64,000 bases of DNA from Alphaproteobacteria bacterium (GCA_017962125.1 JAGCVZ010000002.1:4492-68491), one strand, 5' to 3'; shown: positions 3,098-21,208, counted from the stretch's first letter. The notes: a model not told the origin generated them from the sequence alone. Numbers and translations: made by a program.

Positions 3098-3778
3098 TTA
3101 TTTCACCAAAATTCTTGTGTCATCGCGCATGTCTATTACTTTCAAATCTTTTGATAAAATATTGTATTTTTTGTCCAAGACAACGATATTTCCGATTGCG
3201 GCATCTGGGCCTTTTTCAGGGAGCATAATAATTTTTCCATCAAGGGTTACCAAATTCCATCGCCGGTCATCAATCCATTCTAAATAATCAAGTACATGTA
3301 TAAGATTGTTCGCGGCTTTGGTAATTTCGCTGATGTTATTTGGGACATTACCGCGAAACATAACAATTCCTTCACCACGTACCTCGGATGGTTTCTTTAC
3401 AATCGTTCCATCGGCAGATATTGGATAATAATACATGCCGTCCGTCCATCCAGCAACCGCATGATAAAGATTCACACGAATATCTAGGTTGCCGTTTGCT
3501 AATCTGCGAACCGAGGATTGTTTGACCCCCGGGGTTTGAGAAATGCGCGCGTTTACAAGTTCTAGGTTCATAGCATGACTGTGTGTTCCGGGTGCAATCC
3601 CGGCCGCAGCAACAATTGTAGTAAGGTCTTTATCGGTTGTGTCGGCTGATATAGATATATGGCGAATCATTGATGTTGGACCGTATCCCATAAATGCCAT
3701 AACAATACGTGCCGCAAAATATATTGCAAGTAAAACAGCCGCAATAAAATACAACCAAAACCAGAGATTTCGTTTCAT
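3098..3778 (-). CDS. ftsQ: Cell division protein FtsQ/DivIB
   Basis: N-terminal TM helix, POTRA-like VKQSSVRR, RRWNLVT, C-terminal IDMRDDTRILVK; adjacent to ftsA. Confidence 0.88.
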   Translation of the reverse strand: MKRNLWFWLYFIAAVLLAIYFAARIVMAFMGYGPTSMIRHISISADTTDKDLTTIVAAAGIAPGTHSHAMNLELVNARISQTPGVKQSSVRRLANGNLDIRVNLYHAVAGWTDGMYYYPISADGTIVKKPSEVRGEGIVMFRGNVPNNISEITKAANNLIHVLDYLEWIDDRRWNLVTLDGKIIMLPEKGPDAAIGNIVVLDKKYNILSKDLKVIDMRDDTRILVK

Positions 3779-3873
3779 GTCGAAAATTATATCATATTTT
3801 GGTGGTCAGTGTTAGTGATTAGTGCAAATAATAGATTTTTATGAAATTTTTAACCGATATTTATATTAAACCC

Positions 3874-13756: not shown

Positions 13757-14326
13757 TTAAATTCGTTCAGGTTTGTATATAATGTGTTTTTTGTTTACAT
13801 AGTCGCGCAGAACTTTTTCCCCAGATTTAGATTCAATGTTGCCATATACGGTGATGTTTCTGTGTTTGAATTCCTCTATCCAATTTGGTTTAAAACCTTC
13901 GTCAAAGCCAGTTATGTCTTCAACTATATTTGATGGAACGCCGAAATATATTTCTTTGATTCCGGACAACATGATGCCACCCAAACACATTATGCATGGT
14001 TCCGCCGTTACATATAAAGACAGATTGTGTGCTGATAAATCGTAAGTATGCAGTATTTCTTCGGCAGCGTGAATTGCATTCATTTCTGCGTGATTATGAC
14101 TGCATGTGTCTTTTACTACTGTGTTTGCAGTTTTGGCAATTAATTGCCCAGAAGAATCATAAATCGCGGCTAGGAAAGGTCCATAACCACGCGAAATGTA
14201 AGTTGGTAATTCGTTGTATAATTCAGTGATGATTTTTTTTGCATGGGTTAGTTTTGTATCATTGATTTTTTCATTTGTGATAATAGTATTCGAATTTTTG
14301 CGCATCTTGGTTGCTCCTGGTATCAT
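13757..14326 (-). CDS. Zinc-dependent nucleoside/guanine deaminase (CDA family)
   Basis: HAE and EPCIMC zinc motifs, GPF.AAI, GFDEG. Confidence 0.9.
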   Translation of the reverse strand: MIPGATKMRKNSNTIITNEKINDTKLTHAKKIITELYNELPTYISRGYGPFLAAIYDSSGQLIAKTANTVVKDTCSHNHAEMNAIHAAEEILHTYDLSAHNLSLYVTAEPCIMCLGGIMLSGIKEIYFGVPSNIVEDITGFDEGFKPNWIEEFKHRNITVYGNIESKSGEKVLRDYVNKKHIIYKPERI

Positions 14327-14473
14327 TTGTTTATATTATACAATTTGTTACAATAATAAACAAGTTGATTGTCGGATGATATGGCGCAACATGATGCAAG
14401 TCACGGGCTGATTTTAGAGATTGGACGAGAAATGGATAAATGCAAAAAATAAATTTAATTTGTCAAATTTAAA

Positions 14474-14767
14474 CTAATAGTGTTTTCTTTTACGCTTTTT
14501 GTGTTTTTGATAATATATAGTAAGCATCAAAACAAATATCAAAAAACAAATATCCAAAGACACAATAAATATCAGTCCTAATTCTGGTGTTTCCAGCAAT
14601 ATATACGCCATATAACATAAATCTGCGGCAATCCATGTGAACCAGTACCCTAAACTTAAATCGTCTGCAGATTTTGTTTTTAATAATTTAACAATTTGTG
14701 GCATATAAGCAACGAATTCTAGTACGGTGTAAACAGAAAGAAAAATTAAAGATATTGTCGTTTTCAT
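14474..14767 (-). CDS. PQ-loop / SemiSWEET-type small transporter (cassette cargo)
   Basis: YMPQIVKLLKTKSADDLS PQ-loop motif, three TM helices. Confidence 0.85.
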   Translation of the reverse strand: MKTTISLIFLSVYTVLEFVAYMPQIVKLLKTKSADDLSLGYWFTWIAADLCYMAYILLETPELGLIFIVSLDICFLIFVLMLTIYYQKHKKRKRKHY

Positions 14768-14831
14768 AATACAAATTATATCACAAAAACCACGAAAGTT
14801 GTAAAAAATTACTATTTTTTAAAACAAAAGA

Positions 14832-14855
14832 AAACTTGCCACGATTGGCAAGTTT
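14832..14855 (-). terminator. Junction hairpin AAACTTGCCA-CGAT-TGGCAAGTTT
   Basis: Perfect 10-bp stem with T-rich tail on the minus strand. Confidence 0.7.
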
Positions 14856-14861
14856 GGAAAC

Positions 14862-14887
14862 TGTGGTTGTGGGGTGCTGGCAAAACG
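14862..14887 (+). repeat. 26-bp inverted repeat, left of SSS transporter gene
   Basis: TGTGGTTGTGGGGTGCTGGCAAAACG, exact reverse complement of 16282-16307. Confidence 0.95.
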
Positions 14888-14903
14888 CGAGTTGAAATAG
14901 ATA

Positions 14904-14932
14904 TTGACCCCTAATACTGGTTTGTATAAAAT
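14904..14932 (+). promoter_or_regulatory. Sigma70-like promoter of SSS gene
   Basis: TTGACC-N17-TAAAAT followed by GAGGGG RBS. Confidence 0.55.
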
Positions 14933-14953
14933 TTACTCAAGAGGGGAATATAT

Positions 14954-16279
14954 ATGTTTGTGTTCTTTGTTTGTTATTTAATAATTTTGCTGGCTATTGC
15001 ATTATATGTATCAAGGAAACAGTCAATAAAAGGTTATTTATTAAATAATCGTAAAACATCAACATTTTTATTAACTTTGTCCAATGTTGCGACTTATATC
15101 GGTGCAGGTGCCACGGTTTTTGTGGTGTCTGAAATGGCACGCGGAAACTTTTTATCTTGTTTGGGGTTGGCGTTGGGAATTCCAATGTCTTTTGTCTTGT
15201 TTGGTCTTATTTCTGGAAAAATTAGAAAATGCGGAACGGATTTTAATGCGACAACAATATCTGATTTTTTCAACATAAAGTTTGGGCGACCAAATAGAAT
15301 ATTAATGTCAATTTTGCAACTGATTTATATTGCTTCTGTTATAGGAATTCAGGTTGTTGGTGTGTCATGGTTGGTTGCGCATATGTTAAATGTATCGTAT
15401 TTGTTAGCGGTTGTTTTAGTGTTTGGTGTATCAACTATTTATTCTGCTATTGGGGGATTAAAGGCGGACCTTATTACCGATGCAATACAATTTTTCATCA
15501 TAGCATTATTATTCGTTGGTTTGGGATTTTTTATACAGATATCGCCAAATTTTGGAACAGATATTATAGCGGCGTTCAGTGATATGTTTGTTTTATTTAA
15601 TAATAGCATGATTTTACCGTTTGTTCTTATATTTTTGGTTTTGTCTGTGCATTTAATTACGCAGCCAACGAATTGGCAACTTGCTTTATCAGCACAAGAT
15701 GAACATAGTATAAAAAAGTCTTGTTGGTGGTCTGCGGGGATTACTTTTGTTATTCAAATGATGGTTTTGTTCTTTGGGGTATATGCTTTTGGTACTATGG
15801 CGAATTTAAGTAATCACGACCTTGCGTTTTTTCAACTGATACAAAACACTATGCCAAAGTGGTTGGCTGGTTTAGGGTTTACAGGGTTATTGGCTATGTC
15901 AATGTCTACTTTAGATTCTGCATTTATCGCTGCATCTGCAATTATTACAGGTGAATTTAGAAATATAAAGAAAACAGGAACTGTCAGGTTGTTTACTTTA
16001 TTGTTTGGTTTGTTTGTATTCACTTTGGTTATGGTGTTTCCGTCGATAGCAACACTTGGATATTTTAGTGTTACTTGGGGGCTGATACCGTTGCCAGCAG
16101 TTTTGATTGGTATATACGGTAAAAAAACATCTGGTAAAACGATATTTTTATCTGTGTTGATACCTATGATTGTGACATTGATAGTTTATCCAATTATTGG
16201 ATTTTTGTCGGTATGTTTTATTCCGTTATTATCTGTGCTTATAATTTTTATAGGTAATAGATACATAAAACAGAAATAA
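14954..16279 (+). CDS. Sodium:solute symporter (SSS family) (cassette cargo)
   Basis: About 12-13 TM helices, ATYIGAG, GGLKADLITDAIQ, AMSMSTLDS. Confidence 0.88.
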   Translation: MFVFFVCYLIILLAIALYVSRKQSIKGYLLNNRKTSTFLLTLSNVATYIGAGATVFVVSEMARGNFLSCLGLALGIPMSFVLFGLISGKIRKCGTDFNATTISDFFNIKFGRPNRILMSILQLIYIASVIGIQVVGVSWLVAHMLNVSYLLAVVLVFGVSTIYSAIGGLKADLITDAIQFFIIALLFVGLGFFIQISPNFGTDIIAAFSDMFVLFNNSMILPFVLIFLVLSVHLITQPTNWQLALSAQDEHSIKKSCWWSAGITFVIQMMVLFFGVYAFGTMANLSNHDLAFFQLIQNTMPKWLAGLGFTGLLAMSMSTLDSAFIAASAIITGEFRNIKKTGTVRLFTLLFGLFVFTLVMVFPSIATLGYFSVTWGLIPLPAVLIGIYGKKTSGKTIFLSVLIPMIVTLIVYPIIGFLSVCFIPLLSVLIIFIGNRYIKQK

Positions 16280-16281
16280 TT

Positions 16282-16307
16282 CGTTTTGCCAGCACCCCAC
16301 AACCACA
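16282..16307 (-). repeat. 26-bp inverted repeat, right of SSS transporter gene
   Basis: CGTTTTGCCAGCACCCCACAACCACA, starting 3 bp after the stop codon. Confidence 0.95.
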
Positions 16308-16391
16308 TTGAACAGTAATGTTGAGCGGGGTAAGTTGTTATTGTAAATTCAAGCTTTTTACCAGTTCAAATGTTTTTGGCGATTTATTGAT

Positions 16392-16443
16392 AGTTCGAAA
16401 GTGTAGAAAATAACATATTTTTTCATAAATAAACTTTCGAACT
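16392..16443. repeat. att-like palindrome AGTTCGAAAGT-N30-ACTTTCGAACT
   Basis: Perfect 11-bp inverted arms; homologous to 16992, 17696 and 18788. Confidence 0.9.
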
Positions 16444-16468
16444 TACCAAAAACTTGTGTTCCAAACAA

Positions 16469-16490
16469 AAAATGCCCCGGCGGGCATTTT
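16469..16490 (-). terminator. Junction hairpin AAAATGCCC-CGGC-GGGCATTTT
   Basis: Perfect stem with T tract, 9 bp before the TGGTTG core. Confidence 0.75.
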
Positions 16491-16618
16491 GTTAACTGTG
16501 GTTGTGCTGTCTGTGCAATTCGCGAACCGAATTGTTAGAAATTGGACGAGAAATTGATGAGAAAAAAGATAAATTGAACCTATCAAATTTACATTAAAAA
16601 CATTATCAACGCGATTCT

Positions 16619-16948
16619 TTATCGTTTAGATTCTATCAACTCGTTTCGAACAACTCTTGTTTTATGCATCCTGTCTCTATGGTCAATCACGACTGTTGAA
16701 CCTTTTTCATAAAATTCTTGATATTTTTTTAATATGTTTTCAATATTACCATTTTCAATTAAATAGTGAACATCAGCGTCATACTTTATGTCGAGCGGGG
16801 AAGTAAAAAGACATACTTTTACATACCATTTCACCGCCGCAATTTCTTGATCAGTCAATGTGCGCCCCTGTCCCTTATTTTCTATACGCTTCAGCAATGA
16901 ATCTTCTACTTCTTTTGTGGCGTTTTGTAATTTTTTCTTAGCAACCAT
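16619..16948 (-). CDS. Hypothetical protein (cassette cargo)
   Basis: AAGGG RBS; 109-aa ORF between two junctions. Confidence 0.6.
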   Translation of the reverse strand: MVAKKKLQNATKEVEDSLLKRIENKGQGRTLTDQEIAAVKWYVKVCLFTSPLDIKYDADVHYLIENGNIENILKKYQEFYEKGSTVVIDHRDRMHKTRVVRNELIESKR

Positions 16949-16991
16949 AGTTTACCCTTTTTATTGTTTATGCGTACATTGTATCATAAAA

Positions 16992-17041
16992 AGTTCGAGA
17001 ATCAAAAAAATAGCACTTTTTCAAAACTAAACTTTCGAACT
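16992..17041. repeat. att-like palindrome (degenerate left arm)
   Basis: AGTTCGAGAAT-N28-ACTTTCGAACT. Confidence 0.8.
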
Positions 17042-17218
17042 CGGTGAAAGTATTTGAAACCAAACAAAATCCCGCCCTGAAACGAACGGTTGTTTATCTT
17101 GGTTATGCAGTGTGTGCAGTTCCCGAGCCGAATTATTAGAAATAGGGCAAGAGATTGATAGAGTGAAAGAAATCTCTAATCATAACAAATAAAAACGGAC
17201 AATTTGCCCGTTTTTACA

Positions 17219-17566
17219 TTATTTGTTTCTTGACATCAACTTTCTAGCCATATATCGTTTACCCCCCTCTTCACCAAATACAGTATATAACTTGTCTCTC
17301 AACTTTAACTCGCTTGACTTATATTTTTTAAACGCATCGGCCAATCTCTCATCATTAAATAAAGCATAACTTGGGCATTTTTTATTTCCGCATACATCAA
17401 ATTCCCCTTTATAGTATGGGCATACTATTTTGCCTATACCTAATATGCATAATGGTGCAAAATCAGGAGCAGAGTGGTAGTTTATTTTGGTTGTATGTTT
17501 TTTTGCCCACTGAAATTTTTTATACCGCCAATTTGTTTGTAACGTTAAACCGATAATAGTTCTCAT
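17219..17566 (-). CDS. Hypothetical Cys-containing protein (cassette cargo)
   Basis: AAGGAG RBS; 115 aa; hairpin terminator at about 17191-17216. Confidence 0.6.
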   Translation of the reverse strand: MRTIIGLTLQTNWRYKKFQWAKKHTTKINYHSAPDFAPLCILGIGKIVCPYYKGEFDVCGNKKCPSYALFNDERLADAFKKYKSSELKLRDKLYTVFGEEGGKRYMARKLMSRNK

Positions 17567-17694
17567 GTTTATACTCCTTATTGTTTACACTGTCACTTTA
17601 TTAACGATATATTATACTAATAATTATATCTGTCAACAAAAAATTTTAAAAACTATTTTTCCAATTTTTATGCAAGCATTAAAAATTTAATAAA

Positions 17695-17747
17695 GAGTTC
17701 GAAAGTTCAAAAAATTTGATATTTTCTGAGGACTAACTTTCGAACTC
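17695..17747. repeat. att-like palindrome
   Basis: GAGTTCGAAAGTT-N27-AACTTTCGAACTC, perfect 13-bp arms. Confidence 0.9.
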
Positions 17748-17804
17748 GGTGAAACACTTGCTTTTCTAACAAAAAACCGCCCTTATGGACGGTCTTGTAA
17801 ATCT

Positions 17805-17827
17805 TGGTTGTGGGATGCTGGCGATAC
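17805..17827 (+). repeat. 23-bp inverted repeat, left of methyltransferase gene
   Basis: TGGTTGTGGGATGCTGGCGATAC, exact reverse complement of 18679-18701. Confidence 0.95.
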
Positions 17828-17873
17828 GCGAGTTTTTGTGTTATAATAGTCAAAGATAAGAAAAAGGGATAAC

Positions 17874-18668
17874 ATGACAGTCAATAAACACAAAGATATT
17901 ATTATAAATAATTACACTGACTATGATGAAGATTCTCGTTTGGTTAAAGACCGTGCACATAACATGGAATATTTAACAACTATGCGTTATATTCAAAAGT
18001 TTTTGAAACCAGGGGCGAAGATACTTGAAATTGGTGCAGCAACAGGAAGGTATTCCGTCACTTTAGCAAAGATGGGTTATAATGTTACTGCTGTTGATTT
18101 GACTCCGAGATATGTTGAAATAATGAAGCGCAAATCACGCAGATTAAAAAACTTTCAATGCATGGTTGCTGATGCACTGGATTTAAGTATGTTTAAAGAT
18201 AATTCTTTTGATTTGGTTTTGAATTTTGGACCAATGTATCATTTGTTTAATCAAAAAGATAAAAATCAAGCAATCAAAGAAACTATTCGTGTAGCCAAGA
18301 AAAATGGTGTCTGTATGTTTGCATATATATCAAATGCATGTTTTATGACAGATTATGGTTTAAGACACGATAAGGTTGAATATTTGTGTTCTGTAATGGA
18401 TGATTTTGGAAAAATTCGTGATATTCCAGAAGAGATTTTTGCAACTTTTTATATAGAAAATTTCAAAAAACTTTTTATAAAAACAAAAACCAAATATATA
18501 ACGAATATAGCAACAGATGGAATTGCACCAGCTATGCGCGAATGGGTTAATCAATTGTCTAAAAAAGCGTTTGAAAAATTTTTACATTGGCATTTTATAA
18601 CATGTGAAAGGTTGGACCAACAAGGATATAGTAATCATCTGTTGTATATCTGCAAAAAATTAAAGTAA
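17874..18668 (+). CDS. Class I SAM-dependent methyltransferase (cassette cargo)
   Basis: ILEIGAATGRY, VTAVDL, ADALDLS, FGPMYHL. Confidence 0.92.
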   Translation: MTVNKHKDIIINNYTDYDEDSRLVKDRAHNMEYLTTMRYIQKFLKPGAKILEIGAATGRYSVTLAKMGYNVTAVDLTPRYVEIMKRKSRRLKNFQCMVADALDLSMFKDNSFDLVLNFGPMYHLFNQKDKNQAIKETIRVAKKNGVCMFAYISNACFMTDYGLRHDKVEYLCSVMDDFGKIRDIPEEIFATFYIENFKKLFIKTKTKYITNIATDGIAPAMREWVNQLSKKAFEKFLHWHFITCERLDQQGYSNHLLYICKKLK

Positions 18669-18678
18669 AATTTAAGTT

Positions 18679-18701
18679 GTATCGCCAGCATCCCACAACC
18701 A
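18679..18701 (-). repeat. 23-bp inverted repeat, right of methyltransferase gene
   Basis: GTATCGCCAGCATCCCACAACCA. Confidence 0.95.
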
Positions 18702-18787
18702 TAGTTAACAAAAGGACCGGTTAGAGCAGCTTTTCATTAGTTTTATAGGATTGTTGCTTGTTCGAATGTTTTTATAGTGTTATAAGC

Positions 18788-18839
18788 GGTTCGAAAGTGT
18801 TGATAGAGAGATAATTTTTCTAAAAATTACTTTTGAACT
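18788..18839. repeat. att-like palindrome
   Basis: GGTTCGAAAGT-N30-ACTTTTGAACT; flanking sequence similar to the 16392 copy. Confidence 0.85.
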
Positions 18840-18892
18840 TACCAAAGTCTTATGTTTTTGCTTTCTGGAATGCGCACGAGACCTTGATAAAA

Positions 18893-19138
18893 TTATTTCC
18901 AAAAATGTCTTTTTGCGAATGCGTATCCGGAACCTGTTTTAAGGTATTGTTCAAATTCCAATGCGGCGTCTTTGGAACTAAATGCAAAATAATTTACTAA
19001 TTCCCAAGGTTTATATTTTGCTGTATGTATTGAATATCCTGCATTATGTTGCTTTAATCGTCGTTTCAAATCATCAGTTTGCCCGATGTATTTTTGTTCT
19101 GGATGGGAAATACTTTTTATAAGATAGACGTAAAACAT
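18893..19138 (-). CDS. Small GIY-YIG nuclease family protein
   Basis: MFYVYLI...YIGQT.DLKRRL.QHN...FEQYLKTGSG; probable start at ATG 19138. Confidence 0.9.
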   Translation of the reverse strand: MFYVYLIKSISHPEQKYIGQTDDLKRRLKQHNAGYSIHTAKYKPWELVNYFAFSSKDAALEFEQYLKTGSGYAFAKRHFWK

Positions 19139-19217
19139 TTGATTCCTATTCCAGCCACACTCCGTTAAAACTATGTGTGGCGCTACTTCGCGATAACTGC
19201 TCCGTCCGTGTGGCCTG

Positions 19218-19248
19218 CCACACGAAGCGTCGCAGACGCGAAGTGTGG
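19218..19248. repeat. REP-like hairpin with GAA/GAA internal loop abutting the tRNA 3' end
   Basis: CCACAC-GAA-GCGTC-GCA-GACGC-GAA-GTGTGG. Confidence 0.65.
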
Positions 19249-19319
19249 TTGGGGCGCACGGATTCGAACCATGATAAAGAGAACCAAAATCTCTTGTCCT
19301 ACCATTAGACGACACCCCA
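19246..19319 (-). tRNA. tRNA-Gln (anticodon TTG)
   Basis: Cloverleaf: acceptor TGGGGTG/CGCCCCA, anticodon arm AGAGA-TTTTGGT-TCTCT, T-arm GGTTCGAATCC, encoded CCA. Confidence 0.96.
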
Positions 19320-19446
19320 AAAGCGGTTTTGATTATAGTCGTTTTTCGACGTTTTGCAATAATAAAATATTTTTCTTGTTTTGGACTTGATTTTTAATTA
19401 TTAAAAATTATAATGATTGTTGGTTTTAATAAAGCAGGGGGTGAAT

Positions 19447-19896
19447 ATGGCGCATAAAGAATTAGTGTCTTTGATGTGGAAAAATATATTGGCGTTTGCG
19501 AAATTGTCGGAACGTATAAATCGCAGTCAAATGTCTTTTAGTGATTATTCGCGAACACAGATGCAGTTGCTGATACGTCTGTATCTGGGGGGGCGGGTGC
19601 GCTTGAAAGATTTGGCGGCACGCGAATTTGTGCCGGCACCGAATTTATGCACGGCTTTCCGTAAGATGGAACATGATGGTTTAGTGGTGCGCGCAGTAGA
19701 TGAAAATGATCGTCGGAATACGTGGTATTCGGTCAGCGAACATGGGGTTCAGGTGGCAAATGGAATTATTGAAATGTTACACGATGCGATTGGTGCTATG
19801 TTCAAAGATATTGATAAAAAAGACGAAGAAGAATTGGTTAGGTCATTCAAATCTATGAATGAAATTCTGTCAAAAATGGAGAATAAAAATGCGTAG
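19447..19896 (+). CDS. MarR-family transcriptional regulator
   Basis: wHTH with GLVVRAVDENDRR; first gene of the efflux operon. Confidence 0.88.
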   Translation: MAHKELVSLMWKNILAFAKLSERINRSQMSFSDYSRTQMQLLIRLYLGGRVRLKDLAAREFVPAPNLCTAFRKMEHDGLVVRAVDENDRRNTWYSVSEHGVQVANGIIEMLHDAIGAMFKDIDKKDEEELVRSFKSMNEILSKMENKNA

Positions 19897-21208
19897 ATTT
19901 TTTATGTGTGTTTTCTCGCTATACGCCGGATTTTCCTGTATAGACAGTTTTGCAATGGATTTGTCATTGAATGAAGCAGTGCAAAAAATTGTCGCAGAAT
20001 CACATGATTTGAAAAAGGCAGATGCAAATGTTAAAAAGGCGCAAGCATCATTGGATGTCGCAAACGCAAGTCGGTGGTTTAATGTTGAAGGTTCTGTATC
20101 TTATATGAGCCTTATTAATGTCGAAAAACCGTTTGATTCATATAATGTGCAATTGCCACCTGAAATCGGTGGTTTAGTACCTCAACTGGCTGGGTTTGAA
20201 AGTATAGATGTTCCAGATAATATCTTTATTGCTGGGGTTACTGTGACGCAACCGATTTATACTTTTGGTAAAATTGGTAATGCGGTTGATAGCATGCGTA
20301 GCGCAATAAAGATGAGCGAATATAGCAAAGAAATGGTCTTGCGCGAGGTGCGATACAGTGCGGCAGATTTGTATTGGACCGCTAAGATGACAGATGAAAT
20401 TGTGAAAATTGCAAAAAAAAATCTAAATGATGCAGTATCTGCAAAAAAACAACTAACAGGCGCAGGGCGTGCGAATCGTGGCAATTTGGTAAAGATAGAA
20501 TCGGATATTGCAACCAAAAAAATTAATCTGTCAGATGCAGAATTTAATTGTGATACGGCGCATAGGATGTTAAAAATTTTGGCGGGAATTGATGTTGATG
20601 AACCATTAATTTTAACCGATGAATTCCCAGAATCTTTTCCAGAAATGGAAGATAAAAAATTGTCCAATACTCCAGAATGGCAGGTGTTAGACCAACAGAT
20701 AAAGATGTATGAGGCCAAGGCTTCATCTAATCGGGCGAATGGGTATCCAACACTTGCGGCGGTTGGGGCATATGACTATGTGACGATGGACAAAGATTTA
20801 AAAAATATGTTTAATAGTAATGGAGTGCAATCTGCGTATTTAGGTCTTGCGCTTAAGGTTCCGATTTTTAGTGGTGGTGTAAACAAGGCTAATGCAACGC
20901 TTGATGTAATGAGTGCCGAAGTTGTCCGCCAAGATTTGGATAAGTCGAAAAAGATTACATCCGAAAAATATACTAATGCGATAAAGCAATATAATCATTT
21001 GCGTGATAATCTTGGTGGACTTAGTAATGCTCGTAATTTGGCGGCCAAGGCGTACGGTTTTTCGCTTGATAGGTTTGCGGCGGGTCAAACTTCTGCGGTG
21101 GAATTGGCCGATGTTTCAAATGGCTTATATCAATTAGACATGGCTTTGTTAAATGCAAAGTATAAGATTTTAATGTCGGCAGAATCAATTAAAAAACTTG
21201 GTGAATAA
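19889..21208 (+). CDS. TolC-family outer membrane efflux protein
   Basis: Signal peptide, LSLNEAV, QPIYTFG, YPTL, VPIFSGG, RFAAG. Confidence 0.9.
   Translation: MRRFFMCVFSLYAGFSCIDSFAMDLSLNEAVQKIVAESHDLKKADANVKKAQASLDVANASRWFNVEGSVSYMSLINVEKPFDSYNVQLPPEIGGLVPQLAGFESIDVPDNIFIAGVTVTQPIYTFGKIGNAVDSMRSAIKMSEYSKEMVLREVRYSAADLYWTAKMTDEIVKIAKKNLNDAVSAKKQLTGAGRANRGNLVKIESDIATKKINLSDAEFNCDTAHRMLKILAGIDVDEPLILTDEFPESFPEMEDKKLSNTPEWQVLDQQIKMYEAKASSNRANGYPTLAAVGAYDYVTMDKDLKNMFNSNGVQSAYLGLALKVPIFSGGVNKANATLDVMSAEVVRQDLDKSKKITSEKYTNAIKQYNHLRDNLGGLSNARNLAAKAYGFSLDRFAAGQTSAVELADVSNGLYQLDMALLNAKYKILMSAESIKKLGE

Follow-up and report, generated by a model that had tools for sequence, protein, structure and literature searches.

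How did a run of short, unrelated genes come to be lined up behind a single tRNA gene in a small bacterial genome? The stretch analyzed here (the window) comprises 64 kb on contig C12 of a 16-contig, 935,647-bp assembly that is 94% complete, and its closest related loci place the host in Candidatus Enterousia, a group of uncultured Alphaproteobacteria from animal guts and rumen with genomes of ~0.8–1.0 Mb. Positions 14380–19319 of the window are a tandem array of small units that share one junction grammar and lie behind a gene for tRNA-Gln(UUG). Six units are stacked between a deaminase gene and the tRNA, carrying in order a PQ-loop protein, an SSF transporter, hypothetical proteins of 109 and 115 aa, a methyltransferase and a GIY-YIG protein. 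An earlier note, made from the sequence alone, had described five cargo units; ARAGORN, Rfam and Pfam confirm the array, but a sixth unit, with a GIY-YIG gene at 18893–19141 on the minus strand, had been missed. The note's PQ-loop, SSF symporter and methyltransferase gene calls agree with Pfam, and the two hypothetical proteins have no Pfam match. We consider it probable that the interval 14395–19245 consists of six integrative units without integrases that accreted at the 3′ end of the tRNA gene and are miniature derivatives of elements encoding a large serine recombinase (LSR).

The common plan of the array is clearest at its junctions. Alignment of 16 junctions from this genome revealed a fixed order of parts: a −10-like box, a palindrome (P), a short A-rich stretch, a GC hairpin (T), the core TGGTTG and ~70–100 conserved bases (U) that open with a mimic of the tRNA T-arm. 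P is a ~50-bp palindrome with 10-nt arms and 28–30 nt between them. In its strict form it occurs at three sites in the window (16393, 17697 and 18789), found as five matches, two sites on both strands and one on the plus strand only. It was absent from 100 of 100 shuffles of the window, and a control pattern read backwards had no match in the pattern scan of 41 genomes. The reported spacing from palindrome to core was correct at 56, 59 and 59 bp (16443 to 16499, 17041 to 17100 and 17746 to 17805), the core at 17100 reading TGGTTA, and a profile search recovered both the partly deleted junction (14793–14869) and the degenerate one (14395–14446) that the earlier note had listed. The core is also, as proposed there, the reverse complement of the end of the anchor gene: the tRNA-Gln gene (19246–19319, minus strand; ARAGORN tRNA-Gln(ttg), Rfam tRNA 57.7 bits) encodes its own CCA, and TGGTTG at 19246–19251 of the plus strand corresponds to its 3′ end, CAACCA. 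Terminator-like sites on the tRNA strand number 9, compared to 3.4 ± 2.2 in shuffles, and the T hairpins score as terminators. Promoter-like sites in total are not above chance (27 compared to 23.7 ± 5.1), and individual well-placed ones overlap or adjoin P in minus-strand units. Among the junctions and some GC-rich mini elements described below, Rfam matched only tRNAs at or above threshold, and we rejected the idea that these sequences are structured RNAs.

The same modules occur elsewhere in the genome. In a genome-wide profile search, P and U clustered on seven contigs, always as arrays and always in one orientation relative to a tRNA, and the arrays recur at six to seven tRNA genes. The scan that the earlier note had proposed thus found the modules confined to arrays beside tRNA genes, but not limited to tRNA-Gln(ttg): the supposed specificity for tRNA-Gln did not hold, since arrays also lie at initiator tRNA-Met and tRNA-Glu. 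In addition to the array on C12 at tRNA-Gln-ttg, there is one of at least six units on C11 and another on C6, both at tRNA-Gln-ctg, and one on C8 at initiator tRNA-Met. A variant family with the core TGGCAG forms the array at tRNA-Glu-ttc on C15, and further arrays of this variant family lie on C4, reaching Glu-ctc via a 141-nt overlap with C14, and on C7, running to the contig end. Five clusters, those on C12, C11, C6, C8 and C15, end at a tRNA 3′ end. Altogether the arrays sum to ~32 kb, or 3.4% of the assembly. Their cargo, as identified by Pfam, includes two GNATs, three alpha/beta or serine hydrolases, a radical-SAM/B12 protein, AAA-type kinases, peptidases of families S41, S15 and M15, a protein kinase, a nucleotidyltransferase, a methyltransferase and two transporters, with several proteins giving no match; no recombinase or replication gene was present among the array open reading frames (ORFs) scanned with Pfam.

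These additional arrays revealed that the core changes with the tRNA. The genome has 25 P sites. Of the 15 in arrays at tRNAs ending in CAACCA (Gln and initiator Met), 13 are followed by TGGTTG, one by TGGTTA and one by no core. At Glu-type sites, TGGCAG comes next in all eight that could be scored; at the remaining two, on C15, mini elements split P from the core, and the automatic search found none where TGGCAG can be read by eye. The 3′ end of tRNA-Glu is CTGCCA and the core therefore follows its anchor, which extends the original claim that core and tRNA end are the same sequence. Direct repeats of 6 nt (TGGTTG or TGGCAG) are present at 22 of the 25 junctions, and some junctions match the tRNA end exactly over a longer stretch (20 nt for tRNA-Met and tRNA-Glu; 15 nt for tRNA-Gln, in the relative's locus L038).

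Which enzyme could recognize such a site? The earlier note had suggested looking for a recombinase that carries the motif, and a serine recombinase with Resolvase and Recombinase domains and P in its tail was found. A Pfam Resolvase search of 41 genomes identified many serine recombinases in the genus, one family of which is ~500 aa long. All five members scanned have both domains; three (those of our genome, G022 and G004) also have Zn_ribbon_recom, and the Arg and His types have two domains. The members of G022 (L102:8065–9570) and G004 are of the Gln type, with 501 and 511 aa. As a family the LSRs are coherent: members that differ in tRNA type are 29–39% identical and those of the same type 72–74%. 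A census recovered 27 matching loci in 25 of 101 genomes of the genus, and in 24 of them the LSR reading frame runs into a convergent tRNA gene, the three exceptions being fragments or truncated matches. The target tRNAs are Gln-ctg, Gln-ttg, Glu-ttc, Glu-ctc, Met, Pro, Asn, His and Arg. A palindrome with 10-nt arms sits at a fixed place in the LSR tail in 21 of the 27 loci; its arms vary by lineage, yet they stay palindromic. Compared by eye, the tail has the order P, hairpin, core, tRNA, the same as the grammar of the cargo units, and the P profile built from cargo units matches LSR 3′ ends in four of six loci examined (L101, L102, L105 and L106). The left end of the element in G022 is TGGTTG followed by the T-arm mimic. 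Because the LSR frame passes through P and T into the tRNA end in those 24 loci, the cargo units look like LSR elements that have lost the integrase. Our genome has one LSR of the Glu type (C1:494–2098), which ends inside tRNA-Glu(ttc) at 2042–2116.

A viral contig (L153:5933–6256) encodes an LSR-like tail that is 45–47% identical to the Gln-type LSRs and has identical palindrome arms. This match suggests that phage relatives of the family exist; it is the single viral contig in the scan with the strict palindrome, no tRNA lies within the 13 kb examined, and one match is too little to argue that phages carry the system. Separately, a second, unrelated LSR family of 530–550 aa is common in the genus. 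In the sole locus of that family containing tRNAs (L095:382–1971, from G003), the gene ends 140 bp from the 3′ end of tRNA-Tyr. Our own genome has a loose palindrome 290 bp downstream of a tRNA-Tyr (C4:26836–26883).

In the model that we propose, accretion would occur by site-specific recombination centered on the CAACCA with which the tRNA ends (TGGTTG on the plus strand). The LSR gene of an autonomous element is its tRNA-proximal gene, with a frame running through P and hairpin T into the tRNA, and recombination between the element's site (hairpin arm, core and T-arm mimic) and the end of the tRNA gene would integrate the element and restore the tRNA. Derivatives without an integrase would keep P–T–core at one end and U at the other, with one gene, occasionally a few, and a promoter of their own in between, and could be moved in trans by an LSR of the matching type, whether resident or visiting. 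With repetition, units would become stacked behind the tRNA, and T may act as a terminator on the tRNA strand. New units presumably enter mostly next to the tRNA. The earlier proposal of a trans-acting recombinase for one-gene cassettes is plausible given a serine recombinase family that carries the motif; that this family catalyzes the insertion and excision of units in trans is something we infer. P may be a second DNA-level site, either an accessory recombinase site or the operator of the promoter-like site that it overlaps. It looks like a DNA site because cargo units preserve its arms exactly around a formerly coding interior that has decayed, and because the arms are kept in the viral LSR tail.

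The same accretion at tRNA ends could instead be the work of classical tyrosine integrases belonging to other elements or phages, with the LSR genes mere co-residents of the hotspots. The Islander paper treats tyrosine integrases as the usual tRNA-targeting enzymes, 28 of 40 other genomes of the genus have further tyrosine recombinases beyond the two Xer-like genes (several of ~400 aa), and some units have exact copies of 15–20 nt of the tRNA end, as tyrosine-integrase islands do. However, our genome has only two tyrosine recombinases, with best scores as XerD-like and XerC-like. On the three contigs listing both a palindrome and a tyrosine recombinase (G004:C6, G006:C4 and G021:C68, judged by eye) the two are at least 29 kb apart, and the P–T–core of the cargo units is shared with the LSR tail and not with any tyrosine integrase locus. 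We consider this explanation unlikely. Since the only tyrosine recombinases present are Xer-like, we also considered insertion driven by Xer, as in integrative mobile elements exploiting Xer (IMEX). It has low odds; by eye the junctions have no convincing dif-like site, and no formal dif search was made.

In an immobile alternative, P and T would be regulatory repeats similar to repetitive extragenic palindromic (REP) sequences, serving as promoters, operators or terminators between ordinary chromosomal genes. P does overlap promoter-like sites of minus-strand genes, and T scores as a terminator. Comparison of tRNA-Gln loci across relatives, which the earlier note had proposed, showed that the flanks are kept and the cargo differs. 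On the tRNA side, the conserved flank consists of chromosomal genes for MarR and an outer-membrane efflux (OEP) protein (19417–21208, plus strand; Pfam), both of which matched in 80 of 80 related loci; 64 of these have tRNA-Gln(ttg) next to the pair, the others being cut at a contig end or having only tRNA-Glu, and in 20 of the 80 the contig breaks at the tRNA. The distal conserved flank is a cytidine/deoxycytidylate deaminase gene (13757–14326, minus strand; Pfam), which has a homolog in nine of the relatives' loci; its distance to the tRNA in the loci with both is 1.2–7.5 kb, compared to 4.9 kb here. Of 150 other genomes of the genus, none has a DNA match to the SSF gene or to either hypothetical gene and three have one to the methyltransferase gene; ~14 match the PQ-loop gene (69–76%) and at least 30 the GIY-YIG unit. 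The GIY-YIG protein is 96–98% identical at the amino acid level in L018, L043 and L054, where its neighbors are different and the OEP protein of such loci is only 65–88% identical. Its right neighbor in relatives is a tRNA, another unit or unrelated DNA. Similarly, L015 and L038 have 2033 bp in common at 98% identity at different array positions. The REP-like explanation is contradicted by cargo that varies between conserved flanks and by units that move between contexts at identities above those of core genes, and the modules lie only in arrays beside tRNA genes; we regard it as very improbable. Altogether these data support the view that the units are discrete, variable, non-autonomous and stacked at the 3′ end of the tRNA.

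The GIY-YIG unit deserves separate comment. It is by far the most widespread of the units and is conserved beyond core genes, and in L018 it has no adjoining palindrome or core. A stand-alone GIY-YIG nuclease might spread by a homing-like route of its own.

Do the units move at their cores? Public runs were searched as Logan contigs only, aligned at 90% likeness, and these contigs may stem from other strains or arrays. The array stretch is partly present in 20 runs from 15 studies, with about a quarter of its words in 14 of them. The contigs of X5, X6, X7 and X15 leave parts of it uncovered, and these gaps were given no weight. In one of these 14, X7, the matching quarter is the SSF unit: a contig (record 25) covers exactly 14864–16312, from core to inverted core, at 99% identity and with foreign flanks. 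In a single X6 contig, whose flanks are 98% identical, the PQ-loop and SSF units are separated by 491 additional nt, and a 35-nt repeat of 14863–14897 (the core and the bases after it) bounds this insert. Two joints, 16496 to 19244 in X6 and 19243 to 16497 in X5, are those expected of the empty site and of the circle (or tandem) junction after recombination between the core at 16499 and the tRNA. Because the sides of these joints are short (29–39 nt), we count them as hints and not as proof. Another joint in X6, 16493 to 14859, could be read as a circle or tandem copy of the SSF unit; it was not counted, since an extra unit ending in a similar hairpin explains it equally well. We also compared 56 array regions with one another and recorded where high-identity matches (high-scoring segment pairs, HSPs) end, a crude census in which the related genomes are not independent: 14 of 178 ends fall within 12 nt of a core, compared to 1.4 expected, a ~10-fold enrichment. 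Breakpoints at TGGTTG, which the earlier note had predicted, are thus seen at cores in public contigs, but some lie at palindrome edges instead.

These palindrome-edge breakpoints belong to a set of observations that weigh against LSR-driven accretion as we have formulated it. Of the 178 HSP ends, ten coincide with the left edge of P, compared to 0.8 expected, and 148 fall at neither core nor P edge; the arrays on C6 and C11 diverge at a P edge and not at a core; and a joint in X6, 16443 to 18850, comes directly after two palindromes. The near-identical strain in X6 differs mid-array on one contig, and its GIY-YIG end is represented too, on X6 contigs that are not linked to that one. This difference does not fit strict tRNA-proximal insertion, and since the strain shares the distal and proximal units and differs in the middle, internal insertion or deletion also happens. 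The notion that each new insertion pushes older ones outward was accordingly not borne out. In addition, a Gln-type LSR was not found in this 94%-complete assembly, and no recombination was seen directly. In LSR genes the palindrome arms double as codons for conserved residues of the protein's tail, and part of their conservation there is therefore at the protein level. Relatives carry tyrosine integrases of ~400 aa that could serve some units, for example those with 15–20 nt of tRNA identity, and the units bracketed by inverted repeats, described below, pose a further problem. Finally, canonical LSRs recombine attP with attB only. All internal junctions here are alike (T arm, core and U arm), and for one insertion to follow another the enzyme would have to accept what is formally an attR site. 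The enzymology is therefore not of the textbook kind.

Some of these observations would be expected if no dedicated recombinase operated today and the junction modules, ~200 bp long and 75–90% identical, served as portable homology for homologous recombination after DNA uptake, with the LSR-derived ends as fossils. The breakpoints at palindrome edges, the mid-array difference between near-identical strains and the lack of a Gln-type LSR in the assembly all speak for this explanation. We nonetheless judge it improbable. The ends are kept far better than neutral fossils would be, with 10-nt arms that are exact around a decayed interior, and the core changes with the tRNA. The limits of the X7 unit coincide exactly with two core hexamers, and partial tRNA copies of 15–20 nt mark precise insertions. 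In a more ambitious version of LSR-driven accretion, Enterousia could have a serine-recombinase counterpart of the integron, in which tRNA genes are platforms for standardized one-gene units, each with its own promoter and terminator, that trans-acting LSRs insert or excise anywhere in the array and exchange between species, with P as a second recombinase site that lets a single type of junction recombine with itself, unlike canonical LSRs. We offer this tentatively, and consider it less likely to be true than false.

Taken from the distal end, the array is built as follows. The junctions between the units were assigned no strand. The PQ-loop unit (14395–14792, minus strand) is the most distal and consists of a degenerate U remnant at 14395–14446, from which the core is gone (U profile, 5.7e-4), and a gene at 14474–14767 on the minus strand (Pfam PQ-loop, 8.7e-14). 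Junction 1 (14793–14863; profile search) has a partly deleted palindrome and a hairpin T at 14832–14855. The SSF transporter unit (14864–16305, plus strand) is of an inverted-repeat type (repeat I2): the core TGGTTG at 14864–14869 and ~20 nt are followed by a promoter-like site at 14904–14932, the gene at 14954–16279 (Pfam SSF, 6.1e-18) and an inverted copy ending in CAACCA at 16300–16305. Junction 2 (16385–16498; pattern and profile search) has P at 16393–16442, AACAAAA and T at 16469–16490. The 109-aa unit (16499–16980, minus strand; U profile, 2.3e-24; no Pfam match) begins with TGGTTG at 16499–16504 and U to ~16568, and its gene lies at 16619–16948 on the minus strand. At junction 3 (16981–17099; profile search), P has a degenerate left arm (16991–17041) and overlaps a promoter-like site of the 109-aa gene (16978–17005, with TG); T is at 17072–17089.

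The 115-aa unit (17100–17685, minus strand; U profile match at 17071–17170; no Pfam match) begins with TGGTTA at 17100–17105 and U to ~17170 and has its own terminator at 17189–17217, a gene at 17219–17566 on the minus strand and a promoter-like site at 17609–17636. Junction 4 (17686–17804; pattern and profile search) repeats the order of junction 2, with P at 17697–17745, AACAAAA and T at 17776–17793. The methyltransferase unit (17805–18701, plus strand) is again of the inverted-repeat type (repeat I1), with TGGTTG at 17805–17810 and ~20 nt, the gene at 17874–18668 (Pfam Methyltransf_11, 6.8e-19) and an inverted copy ending in CAACCA at 18696–18701. A fourth palindrome at 18789–18838 (pattern and profile search), with an extra half-site, GTTCGAATGT, at 18760–18769, has no hairpin or core after it. 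Next comes the GIY-YIG unit, which adjoins the tRNA (18865–19245, minus strand): a decayed partial tRNA 3′ end at 18865–18878 precedes an 82-aa gene at 18893–19141 (Pfam GIY-YIG, 1.2e-16) and a GC-rich leader that ends at the tRNA core.

Both plus-strand genes are thus bracketed by inverted copies of the core and ~20 nt, the full repeats spanning 14833–14887/16282–16336 and 17766–17827/18679–18740, and similar inverted pairs 0.7–1.9 kb apart are present in the loci of six relatives (L015, L022, L029, L034, L035 and L054). Such units resemble elements with terminal inverted repeats, and the DNA between the repeats could be invertible. They also resemble the dif modules of Acinetobacter plasmids, which are flanked by inverted Xer sites.

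Other sequences accompany the arrays. Non-coding mini elements of ~150–260 nt lie between a partial copy of a tRNA 3′ end (13–20 nt) and the tRNA or next core, both in relatives (L038:9115–9372, L024:9200–9386 and L018:9205–9385) and in our genome (C8:62105–62274, C8:64688–64857, C15 ~2790–2990, C15 ~3600–3790 and C7:49630–49800). They combine an AT-rich start that is conserved with a GC-rich hairpin region, a terminator and a T-arm-like stretch in the orientation opposite to that of the anchor tRNA, and have no Rfam match. They may be the most minimal members of the system, or they may specify a small RNA. A 1.3-kb segment with a 300-aa ORF at the distal end of the tRNA-Met array (C8:60006–61301) lies, in ten relatives, between the deaminase gene and the tRNA-Gln(ttg) array (L015, L018, L019, L020, L021, L022, L029, L032, L034 and L042). 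Its placement suggests that arrays with the CAACCA core in common have exchanged or rearranged segments. The 0.94-Mb assembly has two different tRNA-Gln(ctg) genes (C6:254164–254237 and C11:7892–7965) and two tRNA-Glu(ttc) genes (C1:2042–2116 and C15:2696–2770), each with its own array, and C11 begins within a near-copy of a C6 unit. Either elements bring or duplicate tRNA genes, or the bin combines two strains. ARAGORN found no transfer-messenger RNA (tmRNA) gene in the assembly, which may reflect incompleteness or a missed two-piece alphaproteobacterial form.

How does this array relate to systems already described? The integron is the obvious comparison. Integrons use a tyrosine recombinase, IntI, and single-stranded folded attC sites, with attI beside intI and one platform promoter. 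As in integrons, a fixed platform here gathers short, mostly one-gene units that are split by structured repeats, and the cargo differs between strains. Unlike in integrons, a tRNA gene serves as the platform, units are delimited at a tRNA-like core, and a promoter and terminator come with each of them. Could the array nevertheless be an integron, or a cluster of attC sites lacking an integron integrase (CALIN), with the palindromes as attC sites? The short, mostly one-gene units, imperfect palindromes of attC-like size and cassette-typical cargo (GNATs, hydrolases and transporters) agree with this idea. However, there is no integron integrase, the models scoring 111–113 bits against a cut-off of 265, and unit boundaries lie 56–59 bp outside the palindrome and not within it; on these two grounds we rejected the possibility. 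Units that bring their own promoters and terminators, and arrays anchored on tRNA genes, also argue against it, and the arms GTTCGAAAGT and ACTTTCGAAC are at odds with the attC R-box (R″/R′) consensus. Of all explanations considered we give this one the least credence. The outcome is nonetheless alike, in keeping with the earlier description of the array as functionally like an integron but lacking IntI.

The findings matter in several respects. The Islander paper (2014) stated that serine recombinases were not known to target tRNA genes; here an entire LSR family does, its members in one genus covering at least eight tRNA specificities, and it has spawned miniature integrase-less units that make up ~3.4% of a 0.94-Mb genome. 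Because they occupy this share of the genome and differ between species, the units are probably a main route by which genes enter and leave the reduced genome of this gut and rumen symbiont. Engineers of serine integrases may take an interest in LSRs whose natural targets are short and look programmable (a tRNA 3′ end and a T-arm mimic) and that come with a conserved accessory palindrome, and the P–T–core–U profile provides a handle with which metagenomes can be mined for the flexible genes of these uncultured bacteria.

In the literature, we found no description of this system in Enterousia, nor of tRNA-targeting LSR cassette arrays, in a survey that covered the texts of articles; the words “cassette”, “tRNA”, “integron” and “mobile” are absent from the text of a 2025 mSphere paper on Enterousia. 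The earlier note did not recognize this as a described system, but there are precedents in cis-mobilizable elements (CIMEs), the ssrA islands of Dehalococcoides and the tycheposons of Prochlorococcus. As reviewed (PMC5704250), CIMEs are integrase-less elements that accrete in tandem at tRNA and tmRNA genes, and serine recombinases normally target the inside of protein genes. Like CIMEs, the units described here are bounded by direct repeats of the target 3′ end with an intact tRNA gene at one end, and units without an integrase share att ends with integrase-bearing elements. CIMEs as portrayed in that review are decayed integrative and conjugative or integrative and mobilizable elements, many kb in size and dependent on tyrosine integrases. 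Here, in contrast, a standardized one-gene unit is present in dozens of copies, in the manner of miniature inverted-repeat transposable elements (MITEs), and the enzyme would be a serine recombinase.

Tycheposons form hypervariable islands beside several tRNA genes in which older elements are pushed inward and partial tRNAs mark old events; their recombinase is a tyrosine enzyme in 910 of 937 cases and a large serine recombinase in 27 (10.1101/2020.12.28.424599). They share with the Enterousia arrays a setting in small genomes without ordinary mobile elements, repeated integration at tRNAs and partial tRNA copies. Unlike tycheposons, which have their own integrase and often replication genes, the units here carry neither, and the palindrome–hairpin ends that are standard here have no counterpart in what that study sets out about element ends.

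The ssrA islands of Dehalococcoides lie in tandem and are delimited by direct repeats of the tmRNA gene's 3′ end (McMurdie et al. 2011, PMC3146451). Their integration module includes DsiA, a second and small serine recombinase. According to that account, insertion is in the T-loop region, the gene for the serine recombinase DsiB always overlaps the att site at its 3′ end, with its stop codon in the target gene or the next island, and many islands have no integration module and were read as cis-mobilizable. The layout is alike: tandem units at the end of a tRNA-like gene, and an LSR gene that overlaps the att site and target at its 3′ end. The CcrB and CcrC models score only 69–76 bits on the LSRs here against a cut-off of 900. 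In contrast to the ssrA islands, the elements here target at least eight kinds of true tRNA gene and not the tmRNA gene, the units have one gene in 0.4–1.6 kb compared to ~7 kb of integration module and cargo per island, the target repeat is down to 6 nt in the main subfamily, and a 50-bp palindrome and hairpin are kept as standard ends. Accretion of cis-mobilizable elements is the general concept, tycheposons are an ecological parallel, and the Dehalococcoides ssrA islands are the closest precedent. The array is a miniaturized variant of known tDNA accretion, somewhat integron-like in its working and not an integron.

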